A stretch of DNA of 64,000 bases from Candidatus Omnitrophota bacterium (GCA_041649175.1 JBAZNR010000001.1:911497-975496), one strand, 5' to 3'; shown: positions 40,498 to 43,700, counted from the stretch's first letter. Numbers and translations are program-made. The notes: a model not told the origin generated them from the letters alone.

Positions 40498-40526
40498 TTG
40501 ACATTCGACGATCCATACGGCATACT
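40498..40526 (+). promoter_or_regulatory. Candidate promoter (TTGACA - 17 nt - CATACT) driving the riboswitch leader.
   Basis: Consensus -35 hexamer and a 4/6 -10 hexamer, ~70 nt upstream of the aptamer. Confidence 0.35.
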
Positions 40527-40587
40527 TGTACTGGGTTAGAGATAATAGTACTTGTTCTTTGTATTTATTAGTTAAAGTTGGAAATAT

Positions 40588-40676
40588 CCGATAAGGGCAA
40601 ATTGCGAGTAATCGCAAGACGCAAAGCCGCAACTCCTCGCCGGCAAATGAGGAGGGTTGGGCTACCGAAGATATGA
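40588..40676 (+). ncRNA. GEMM / c-di-GMP-I riboswitch aptamer.
   Basis: AGGGCAAA-[UUGCGA GUAA UCGCAA]-GACGCAAAGCC-[CUCCUC...GAGGAG]-GGUUGGGCUACCGA aligns element-for-element with the Vibrio cholerae Vc2 aptamer (AGGGCAAACC-[GNRA hairpin]-GACGCAAAGCC-[hairpin]-...GGGUUACCGA). Confidence 0.65.
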
Positions 40677-40688
40677 GCAAGTAGTTAA

Positions 40689-40737
40689 GAACCGAATTGC
40701 CTTATCAAATAACGGATAAGCAGTTCGGTTTTTTTAT
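40689..40737 (+). terminator. Intrinsic terminator / expression platform of the riboswitch.
   Basis: 11-bp stem AACCGAATTGC...GCAGTTCGGTT (one G-U pair) followed by TTTTTTT, 30 nt before the start codon at 40767. Confidence 0.6.
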
Positions 40738-40766
40738 TTATAGTCTTATTAAAGAGGATAAAAACG

Positions 40767-43700
40767 ATGAGTCATCTTAAGAAACTACATATAGCCTTTT
40801 TTTTGTTGCTGGTTGCTTTAAGTCCGGCAACAAACGCTGTGGCTTCTCCTCTGGAGCCGGGCATTGTCCATTTGCTTAGCGCGAGTGATATCATCAGTCC
40901 GGATCCCGGAGTTTCCATTGATTATTTAGTTATTTCTGCCAACGCCTTTGCAGGCTCTCCGGCGCTTTCTACTCATCTTGATCATCGTGCGTCTGTCCAG
41001 GGTGGACACTATTCTGTTGGTGTTGCTTATCTTGTCGATATTTACGCGGCTTATTCCGGGGCGACGTCGCAGGAAAAGATCAAGGCGTTCATTCAGCATG
41101 CTTATGATAGTTGGCGCGAAAGTGCTGACCCGTCTCTTAAATATGTGCTTTTAGTTGGTGACGCGGATAGAGGATTTAGCAGTCAAACGTGGTTTTTACC
41201 AACCTGGAGAAGCGAAGCTGGCCAGTGGGATGGTATTCCGACCAGCGATCACGATTACGCGTGTTTGTCCGGCGAAGATTTTTCGCCCGAAATTGCGATC
41301 GGCCGGTTCCCTATAAAAACAGAAGTTGAGCTTGAAACAGTAGTGAATAAAACTATTAACTTCGAAACTAATCCGCCGCAAGATGAAAATAATTGGGCAA
41401 CTCGCCATCTTACGATCATCGGCAGCGTCAGCACAGATTCTGAATGGCCGACGATGATCCAGCATCACAAAGAGGCTAAATATTTTAAATATGGAGCTCC
41501 TGGCTACAGCTATAACCAAAATACGATCGTGAATTATTTAAATGCACAGGGTGCTTTGTTTGTAACGTACAAAGGGCACTCGATGCAAGAGTATTGGGAT
41601 AATCCTGATGTGGCGGCAACGGCAATTGCCGGCTTGACGAATATGGATCGTCAGCCAGCATTTGTTATTGCTTTGGCAAGCAACTCGGCGTGCGTTGACA
41701 ATCCGTATCCGGGGCATGCTTCTATTGATTGCGTCGGGGAGGCGTTCTTAAAGAATCCAAATGGCGGCGCGGTTTCTTATTTTGGCGCAACCCGTGAACC
41801 ATGGGCATCCGGCACTTGGCCGTATGAGCCGCTGATCCTCAATGAAATATATACCAATGGCGTAAACATTATCGGCGATGCGATCAGAAATGCAAAAATT
41901 AATTATGTAACTCCGACACGGCAAGACAGCGACGGTTACCATCGCAAGATCTTTAATTTTTTGGGAGACCCGGCTTTAAATATTGCAGCTTATCGGCAGC
42001 AATATTCCACAAAGCCGGAGTTTTCTTTGTTTACCTTGGTTGATAACACTAATCCTCAGCCCGGCGATCAGGTTACTTTTACTGCTTATGTTGAAAACAA
42101 GGGTTTTCAGGTAGTCCAGGATTTACTTGTTCAGGTCTATAGCACATATGGAGCAGGAGAAACTCTTCTCGGAGAATATACGATCCCCAATTTATCGGCT
42201 CAAGAAATAGCAACTATTCGCGGTAGTTTTTCTTGGCCAAATTATGGAAATCTGGGGATGAAGGTTTTGATAGATCCCAATAATACAATTCAAGAGCTGG
42301 ATGAGTTTCACAATTCAATTGGTATCAGGACGCGTTACAACGGTTACTATGCTATCCATGTCGATGCTAGTGCTCCGGCCGGCGGCGACGGCACACTAGC
42401 ACATCCTTTCAATACGCTAGAACCGGCCATTGCATGGTTTAATGAGACCCCCGACCCTTATGAATATTTAGGAGAAATTCATGTGCATCCTGGTGTTTAT
42501 CAGGGCTATCCGCTTAATCATAATGCCTATTGGCTGTACATGAAAGGCCTTGGGAATCCGGGAGAAGTTATATTGACATCGTCTTTGATGAATAGTTCTC
42601 CTCTTATTTCAGATGTCGTGGCAGAAAAGAAAAAATTAGTTGTGGAAAATATCAGTTTTGTTGGCAATTCTGGAACTGAGGATTTAAATTTAAATTATGG
42701 GATATTCAAAAATAACATTTTCTACAATTGGCGATCTATTAAATCGGCTAACGCTTATTTCGACCACAATCTTTTCTACGATAATGGGACGGCCATGGAG
42801 GGAGCTGATCTCGTGCTTCCCGGGAGCGTCCACCTTGTTAACAACACGATGGCGAATAATGAGCATTTACTAACTCTTAACAACAGCAGTGTTTCATTAA
42901 AGAACAATATTGCTTGGGATAACGGCGCAATGGAAGAAGTTGCTCCAGATACATTCCATATCTTCCGCGCTAACTACAATGATTCCGATGATCCTGCTAT
43001 TCTCAATGCGGGTACAAATAATATTTCCGCTGATCCTCTTTTCATCAATTCTTTTGGGCAAGATTATCGGCTTCAGTCGGAGTCTCCCTGTATCAATTCC
43101 GGAGATCCTAATAGTCTACTCGATCCTGATAGCAGTATTGCTGATTTAGGAAGTTGTCCTTTTGATTTGAGCGTGCTCCAGCCGCCGGTTGTCAGTGTTT
43201 CCGCAAACCCCAATCCTGTCCAAGAAGGTATTCTAGTTACTTTACAGGGATCTGGTTCTGACCCTGACGGCGGAAATGTATTTTTCCATTGGGATGGACC
43301 GGCGGGAATTGATATCGCCGATCCCGATAGCGCGATCACTACATTTACCGCTCCGCAAGTAGAAGTTGATACTGCTTATAACTTTACACTAACCGTTACG
43401 GATAATGAAGGCGAAACGGCTTCTCAGGCCGTGAATGTTCTTGTTCAAAATGTGGAAGAGGTGTCTGTTCCGCCGCAGGCTGTTGCTCAAGCGGTTCCCG
43501 ATACTATTATGGAAGGGCAAACGGCTTTGCTTAATGGATCGGCAAGTTCGGATGATGAAAATATTGTTTTGTACCATTGGCAGGCGCCGGAAGGAATTGA
43601 TCTTATTGACCCGACGGGTCCTTACGCGACATTCCTTGCGCCTTCGGTGAATAAAGATGTTGGCTATGAATTTATTCTTACGGTTACGGATAATGACGGC

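Follow-up and report, generated by a model that had tools for sequence, protein, structure and literature searches.

Class I riboswitches for cyclic di-GMP (c-di-GMP) are collected in Rfam as RF01051 (c-di-GMP-I, or GEMM-I), for which Vc2 of Vibrio cholerae is the reference structure. Here we describe an RF01051 member in a 64-kb window of the Candidatus Omnitrophota contig JBAZNR010000001.1 (911497-975496; "the window" is this whole stretch, positions 1-64000), where it lies in the leader of a gene for a secreted C25 cysteine peptidase. Taken as a whole, the locus is probably best explained by a canonical GEMM-I aptamer with a termination platform, OFF being the most likely direction, ahead of this protease gene. 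The window aptamer has the elements of Vc2 in the same order, namely GGCAAA, a GNRA hairpin, GACGCAAAGCC, a second helix and a GCUNCCGA 3' strand, and the bases G20, A47 and C92 are common to both. Differences from Vc2 are the GUAA (GYRA-type) loop and a short P1b that lacks the tetraloop-receptor positions. Furthermore, Vc2 does not regulate by termination (PMC6366702), whereas the window has a terminator.

In platform logic, the closest described system is Cd1 (Cdi-1-3), an OFF switch before flgB in Clostridioides difficile. There, aptamer and terminator are separate and coexist, and an antiterminator forms in the apo state (PMC9262584), a layout like that of the window. The Cd1 antiterminator uses the aptamer-stabilising 3' strand (A+T), whereas the only complement of the terminator arm in the window is the aptamer 5' strand and junction. 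The window also has a 5'-leader clamp around the aptamer, a host from another phylum, and a different regulated gene. In theme, the closest system is the class I riboswitch of zmpI (PPEP-1) in C. difficile, which likewise stands before the gene of a secreted protease and is c-di-GMP-repressed (PMC6366702). However, ZmpI is a small zinc metalloprotease, while the product of the window gene is a C25 cysteine peptidase of 1693 aa with repeats, for which the direction of control is predicted. Bc2, before the collagen adhesin gene cap/cbpA of Bacillus thuringiensis, resembles the window in combining a class I aptamer and a terminator with a surface protein that is large and rich in repeats (PMC6366702). 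Bc2 works as an ON switch, though, and the lack of overlap between aptamer and terminator in the window fits OFF better.

The element belongs to RF01051 as a canonical member, and members of this class are picked up automatically by Rfam-based pipelines. What is new here is the host phylum, Omnitrophota, and the regulated gene family, the C25 peptidases; possibly new as well are the switching role of the aptamer 5' strand and the 5'-leader clamp that goes with it. A literature search found no paper tying Omnitrophota to c-di-GMP riboswitches. The locus adds one more gene class to the GEMM regulon and leaves knowledge of the riboswitch class unchanged; switching by the 5' strand may be exemplified here too. 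Predicted RNA-level sensing of c-di-GMP is seen here in clean, self-contained form, in a phylum without isolates.

Table 1 Features of the riboswitch leader, the protease gene and the PilZ gene, in window coordinates.
Feature	Position	Strand	Basis or remark
Sigma-70-like promoter (predicted), TTGACA-17 nt-CATACT	40498..40526	+	10/12 consensus matches
Clamp 5' strand, core UACUUGUUC at 40549-57	40534..40566	+	in the minimum free energy (MFE) fold of every prefix from 40684 on
P1 5' strand	40584..40590	+	partner 40666-40674; pairs from RF03167 structure line
c-di-GMP-I (GEMM-I) aptamer	40586..40669 (40584-40674 with P1)	+	RF01051 full-model match
Candidate switching strand GAUAAGGGCAA: end of P1, junction with G20, base of P1a	40590..40600	+	complement of terminator 5' arm
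AGGGCAAA	40594-40601	+	read in sequence
G20 equivalent (Vc2 numbering), predicted to read one c-di-GMP guanine	G40596	+	alignments; role from PMC6140456
P1a (P2) hairpin, 6 bp UUGCGA/UCGCAA, GUAA (GNRA) tetraloop	40602..40617	+	sequence, RF01051 alignment
Conserved GACGCAAAGCC	40618..40628	+	alignments; columns fixed by locus-fetching pattern
A47 equivalent, predicted to stack between both c-di-GMP guanines	A40623	+	alignments
P1b (P3): AGCC/GGCU, CAA/UUG, GG bulge 40655-56, CUCCUC/GAGGAG	40625..40663	+	RF01051 alignment, pair test
GGUUGGGCUACCGA	40655-68	+	read in sequence
C92 equivalent, predicted Watson-Crick partner of second c-di-GMP guanine	C40665	+	invariant CC columns; role from PMC6140456
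Clamp 3' strand, last 7 nt overlapping terminator base	40669..40693	+	folding
Intrinsic terminator (predicted): 5' arm 40687-40706, loop 40707-14, 3' arm 40715-33, U7 40729-35	40687..40735	+	folding, own terminator scan
Terminator 5'-arm part UUGCCUUAUC, alternative partners 40590-40600 (candidate antiterminator) or 40715-40723 (terminator)	40697..40706	+	duplex energy
Shine-Dalgarno AGAGGA, 9 nt before start codon	40752..40757	+	read in sequence
Secreted C25 cysteine peptidase gene, 1693 aa	40767..45848	+	Pfam, alignment; NCBI MFA5059755.1
PilZ-domain open reading frame (ORF)	57739 (TTG) or 57763 (ATG) to 58749		PF07238 E 3.2e-7, 31 bits vs cut-off 22.5

Aptamer structure and predicted ligand

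When cmscan was run over all 64 kb against Rfam 15 with gathering thresholds applied, a single match was returned for the whole window. This was the match to RF01051, which covers the full model (1-87/87) at 63.4 bits against a gathering score of 35 (E 4.7e-10). The c-di-GMP-II family, RF01786, gave no match in the window at its gathering threshold, nor in 40300-40900 at E<=10. A preliminary description of this DNA had proposed a GEMM riboswitch from its motifs and had named both families as worth searching; the score bears out the class I assignment, and the class II search came back empty. The motifs that it listed (UUGCGA-GUAA-UCGCAA, CUCCUC...GAGGAG and the conserved strings) are all present, between 40594 and 40668. 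Judged by its sequence, 40584-40674 is almost certainly a canonical c-di-GMP class I aptamer.

The three-helix junction of the aptamer is complete, with P1, P1a and its GNRA loop, P1b, and the GC/GC closing pairs (G40621-C40598 and C40622-G40597). P1 consists of C40589-G40667 and G40590-C40666 and can be extended by AUAUC (40584-88) pairing with GAUAU (40670-74), with A40668 and A40669 bulged. In P1b, the hairpin pairs CUCCUC (40633-38) with GAGGAG (40649-54), and G40656 falls in an invariant column of the 76-aptamer alignment described below. This helix is of the short form without the 11-nt tetraloop receptor, the receptor positions being deleted in the cmscan alignment. In the fetched set of loci, a crude pattern for a receptor-like motif matched 0/44 aptamers with a GYRA loop and 8/45 with a GRRA loop. 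From these alignments the window aptamer is a member of the receptor-less subtype, the receptor being expected of type 1 members only.

Since no orthologous leader was found, the helices were tested at the level of the family. A metagenome scan with the pattern GATAAGGGCAAA-N12-24-GACGCAAAGCC fetched 120 loci, from which 75 distinct aptamers plus that of the window were aligned on an Rfam-type structure. Among these 76, standard pairs fill 95.2% of pairing cells, compared with 82% after shuffling and 26-44% after sliding the partners, and the covariation score was reached by 0/500 shuffles. Both sides change at 13 pairs. All six pairs of P1a covary, as does P1 column 6/98 (CG:51, UA:14, UG:11). 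The helices that the preliminary description called P2 and P3 coincide with covarying helices of the 75 independent metagenomic GEMM-I aptamers. The window itself carries rare compensatory pairs at U40602-A40617 (CG in 64/76 aptamers), A40632-U40657 and C40633-G40654, positions that are C-G or G-C in almost every other aptamer.

Chance resemblance, or a decayed and non-functional aptamer, is hardly credible on these grounds. The element does sit in a lineage-specific cassette, without a conserved orthologue that would show purifying selection, and 5/16 c-di-GMP riboswitches of C. difficile are non-functional (PMC6366702). However, the E value of 4.7e-10 was obtained for the entire window against all Rfam families, 20/21 family helix pairs are standard and have been retained through compensatory changes, and promoter, terminator and ribosome-binding site (RBS) are each correctly positioned. 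The columns that are invariant over the 76 aptamers are also unchanged in the window, by construction, many of them being set by the search pattern. Separately, one metagenomic contig of the fetched set carries tandem GEMM-I aptamers (L087:1477-1570 and L087:1660-1753; L numbers are our labels for loci).

In class I aptamers, G20 recognises one guanine of c-di-GMP and C92 pairs with the other, while A20 is the mark of cyclic GMP-AMP (cGAMP) riboswitches (PMC6140456). By our own mapping of Vc2 positions 20, 47 and 92 onto the consensus, the window has the canonical G, A and C, a set that points to c-di-GMP as the predicted ligand, and away from both cGAMP and the GGC variant; we infer binding from it. 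That the aptamer senses another cyclic dinucleotide, either 3'3'-cGAMP, the ligand of GEMM-Ib, or whatever the GGC variant (RF03167, c-di-GMP-I-GGC) binds, appears very improbable. RF03167 is kept by clan competition in E-value mode, at 56.2 bits and E 1.3e-12, and its consensus has a similarly short P1b and the same P1. Its score is nonetheless below the gathering score of 59, whereas that of RF01051 is exceeded by 28 bits. The G47 that defines the variant (GACGCGAA) is an A in the window, where the context reads GACGC-A-AA against GACGC-G-AA in RF03167, and the stretch as a whole reads GACGCAAAG against the consensus GACGCGAAG. GEMM-Ib was rejected at position 20, where it needs an A (the criterion of PMC6140456) and the window has G40596.

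Leader architecture and direction of control

The intergenic leader upstream of the protease gene spans 330 nt (40437-40766), the length already given in the preliminary description. It contains the only good sigma-70-like site on the + strand of the leader, whose -35 hexamer at 40498 explains the left coordinate assigned earlier to the element. From this site, transcription is predicted to start near 40533, and a 5' leader of ~235 nt on a monocistronic-looking transcript would carry the aptamer. The aptamer is on the same strand as the gene, in company with the promoter-like site, the terminator, the RBS and the ATG at 40767.

Two further structures surround or follow the aptamer. The first is the clamp, a 23-bp long-range helix in four blocks that encloses the whole aptamer, with an energy of -15.5 kcal/mol that is equalled by 1-2% of shuffles. 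Its stable core is 40549-57 paired with 40675-83; the inner block, along with a hairpin at 40577-92, competes with canonical P1. The second is the terminator, with 16 pairs from A40690-U40730 up to C40706-G40715, a bulged C40701, an 8-nt loop and an energy of -21.9 kcal/mol. The stem reaches 19 pairs if G40689, A40688 and A40687 pair into the U-run, which ends 31 nt before the ATG. The hairpin had been described as an 11-bp stem plus U7 placed 30 nt before the start codon; the U7 stands, while the stem is longer and the distance is one nucleotide greater. A simple terminator scan of 40200-40900 reported no terminator, because the stem is bulged.

The aptamer very likely works through this terminator. 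Alternatively, c-di-GMP would be bound but the hairpin would terminate constitutively or the element would act otherwise, for example through a stable riboswitch-derived small RNA, mRNA stability, Rho access or translation control via the RBS. We consider this improbable. It would agree with the presence of the terminator in every state of the nested thermodynamic and barrier models, with the V. cholerae class I riboswitches, which do not act by termination (PMC6366702), and with a pairing, seen by eye, that GAGGA of the RBS could make with UCCUC of P1b. However, a constitutive terminator of this strength 31 nt upstream would silence an intact 5-kb ORF with a conserved catalytic dyad, and no promoter-like site was found between the terminator and the ATG. 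The resemblance of the terminator 3' arm, GAUAAGCAG, to the aptamer strand GAUAAGGGCA would also be hard to explain.

As for direction, OFF is somewhat favoured as the most likely, if unproven, mode. The aptamer ends at 40674 and the terminator starts at 40687, with zero shared nucleotides, so a bound aptamer leaves the terminator free. The leader fold (z = -5.7) holds both in its MFE structure, rather than the mutually exclusive pair of structures for which the preliminary description had suggested a folding check. In C. difficile, the seven class I riboswitches that function all switch OFF, that of the zmpI protease included (PMC6366702). The only ligand-sensitive coupling that we found is between the aptamer 5' strand and the terminator 5' arm, where a 10-bp duplex, interrupted by one bulge, can join 40590-40600 to 40697-40706; its energy of -11.4 kcal/mol is equalled by 0.45% of shuffled arms. 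At high c-di-GMP, this aptamer strand, which includes the G20 equivalent, would be held in the binding pocket, the terminator would form and the protease gene would go untranscribed. At low c-di-GMP, the same strand would instead pair with the terminator arm as an antiterminator, and RNA polymerase would read through. Another candidate coupling, 6 bp between the A-strand (40664-69) and the terminator 3' arm, was rejected because the terminator's own 5' arm holds the same ACCGAA and is better placed.

The clamp gives the opposite possibility. In an ON switch, the ligand would stabilise P1 and its extension (40534-66/40669-93), which would hold 40687-93 of the terminator 5' arm and allow read-through, and the protease/adhesin would be induced by c-di-GMP, on the pattern of Bc2 before the collagen adhesin. 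Class I ON switches such as Bc2 do exist (PMC6366702), and the clamp beats 98-99% of shuffles and extends into 40687-93. Surface proteins carrying Ig-like repeats are often induced by c-di-GMP. The clamp core, however, is clear of the terminator, and the overlap amounts to 4+4 weak, isolated pairs; the extension is identical with or without forced canonical P1, which leaves nothing ligand-dependent. With only these eight weak, ligand-fold-independent pairs overlapping the terminator, with the complete terminator in the full-length MFE fold, and with the aptamer 3' end apart from the terminator start, an ON switch via the clamp is unlikely.

Several points also weigh against the OFF termination switch and its setting as proposed here. 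Binding and termination are predictions from sequence and folding, and the expression platform is without covariation support because no orthologous leader was present in the collections searched. The promoter is a consensus match alone in a phylum whose promoters are uncharacterised. Among natural 24-mers taken from the window, 5.7% do as well as the antiterminator duplex at -11.4 kcal/mol, and the nested nearest-neighbour model puts the antiterminator fold 7-8 kcal/mol above the clamp fold. The clamp forms first, over a barrier of 4-6 kcal/mol, and the antiterminator must then form as a pseudoknot alongside it. A crude estimate makes this pseudoknot about isoenergetic (-41.7 + -15.5 + a penalty of ~10-13 vs -47.6). 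The modelling used nested MFE, prefix folding and findpath barriers and predicts the terminator in all states; since nested models cannot treat a pseudoknot, it is not decisive for ON versus OFF. Riboswitch direction cannot be extrapolated between species (PMC6366702), and the 5'-arm design described next is restricted to 4/20 terminator-bearing GEMM loci. A search with the C25 domain gave at best <=29% identity, and a genome scan for C25 homologues gave only a Nitrospira MAG (metagenome-assembled genome) protein at 23% identity; neither returned the window's own protein, which is present in the collection used for the domain search. Related Omnitrophota loci found through the neighbouring VIT1 gene (see below) have no C25 gene and no Rfam match, and no GGDEF, EAL or HD-GYP domain occurs in window ORFs of >=180 residues.

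Complements of the aptamer 5' strand were also found in the terminator 5' arms of three other loci (L088, L095, L111). Counting the window, this makes 4/20 terminator-bearing GEMM loci with the 5'-arm design, against 1/20 for the 3' arm. A complement energy of <= -12 kcal/mol is reached in 17/89 loci, against 3/89 and 7/89 in two controls.

Other arrangements were seen among the fetched loci. In ~9 of them (L018, L020, L035, L062, L066, L068, L087, L029/L104, L063), a complement of the aptamer 5' strand lies directly 5' of the Shine-Dalgarno sequence. These leaders are related, and their complements, for example GGGUGCCCUUAUC, are perfect or near-perfect and lie ~110-155 nt past the aptamer start, which suggests a translational version of 5'-strand switching. 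In L111, L084, L064 and L067, the terminators of homologous leaders stand ~115-155 nt past the aptamer start, and by eye the terminator top UCUUCGGC is complementary to GCCGAAGA, the aptamer 3' strand. This layout is a candidate Cd1-like antiterminator.

The C25 protease gene

The gene product, MFA5059755.1, is annotated at NCBI as 'C25 family cysteine peptidase [Candidatus Omnitrophota bacterium]' and is alone in its 90% cluster. It begins with a Sec-type signal peptide, followed by a Peptidase_C25 domain (PF01364) at residues 53-405 that covers 1-373/374 of the profile (E 8e-64). In the alignment to gingipain R (RgpB), His271 and Cys309 fall on the catalytic His211 and Cys244. A CARDB domain at residues 425-516 is followed by ~280 unannotated residues, and residues ~808-1385 carry at least five K319L-like PKD repeats together with PKD_4, PKD and Big_9 repeats. 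The last 315 residues gave no Pfam match at E<=1. Residues ~520-800 (window 42300-43300), between CARDB and the first PKD, contain repeated N-N-x motifs that suggest a beta-helix; they gave no significant Pfam match, the best being Disaggr_assoc at E 0.014.

The catalytic domain is homologous to that of RgpB (PDB 1CVR/4IEF), with a weak PDB match (E ~5e-9) over ~250 residues. The domain sets differ, the window protein having CARDB, 5+ K319L-like PKD, PKD_4 and Big_9, and the host belongs to Omnitrophota, not Bacteroidota. Neither Propeptide_C25 (PF08126) nor the type IX secretion C-terminal domain (PF18962) was found in the protein at E<=0.01. A gingipain proper, of the kind of Porphyromonas RgpA, RgpB and Kgp, was rejected on the missing propeptide and type IX secretion tail matches. 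The preliminary description had called the product a gingipain-like secreted protease/adhesin. The signal peptide, the C25 match and the dyad support a predicted secreted, gingipain-like protease, while an adhesin role is suggested by the repeat domains only.

No GEMM element was found upstream of the nearest C25 homologues L129-L131 and L001; in L128, just 61 nt of upstream sequence is present. When the 1693-aa protein was compared by tblastn with the 120 GEMM loci, only PKD-type matches were returned, downstream of the aptamers in L025 and L084. One further locus, L054, has a C25-like gene at 4952-6070 (28% identity to the window protein) and a truncated GEMM-I aptamer at 8563-8608, on the same strand and at the contig end. 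That aptamer is 2.5 kb downstream, not upstream, of the C25-like gene.

Host lineage and genomic context

The VIT1 protein encoded next to the cassette has a 100% identical counterpart in a Candidatus Omnitrophota MAG, on a 1.23-Mb contig that also carries MFA5059755.1, in agreement with the uncultivated lineage suggested in the preliminary description. Related Omnitrophota loci encode VIT1 proteins that are 67-69% identical and keep the gene order HypD/E, radical SAM and ribonucleotide reductase, then VIT1, then DsbA, MauE, Memo and AsmA. In L123 (712-2252), a homologue of window ORF 45955-46578 (47% identity, E 1e-30) lies directly downstream of VIT1. With only 47 nt between these two genes there, the promoter, riboswitch and protease gene of the window (40437-45954) form a lineage-specific cassette. 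The wider synteny is kept in L122 and L125, where the cassette is absent. The TTG start listed for ORF 45955-46578 is probably wrong, an ATG at 45998 having AAGGAGG just upstream. A promoter-like site precedes this ORF at 45895-45923, and no terminator was found downstream of the C25 gene.

Most Omnitrophota are believed to be ultra-small and predatory or parasitic, making use of very large surface proteins (PMC10066038). The direction of the switch would tell whether the secreted C25 protease is made at low or high c-di-GMP, a handle on attachment versus attack. Within the window, a PilZ gene, as claimed earlier, lies 17 kb from the riboswitch (Table 1). Its RRSQR motif is present, while the second motif reads NIGAFG against (D/N)xSxxG, with Ser replaced by Gly. 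The PilZ ORF also has a hydrophobic segment, then a long coiled-coil-like tail. Elsewhere, pilZ genes and GGDEF domains cluster with the giant genes of Omnitrophota (bioRxiv 10.1101/2023.11.21.568195).

A more far-reaching combination of these observations is doubtful. It would hold that the platform is of an undescribed kind, in which the aptamer 5' strand switches through a pseudoknotted antiterminator across the 23-bp clamp formed by the 5' end and the aptamer-terminator spacer, and that the promoter-riboswitch-protease cassette was recently acquired. If so, a host-dependent Omnitrophota nanobacterium would tie a giant surface protease to c-di-GMP, complementing the pilZ and GGDEF links known around Omnitrophota giant genes.

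Downstream of the PilZ and polysaccharide deacetylase genes, ORF 60408-63704 (1098 aa) has no Pfam match at E<=0.1. Over the window, 36/38 ORFs of >=180 aa are on the + strand, and the cumulative GC skew climbs steadily across it, the pattern of a leading strand. The gene content (PFOR, NiFe hydrogenase, Hyp maturation, class II ribonucleotide reductase, AcrB/OEP and AsmA) points to an anaerobic diderm.

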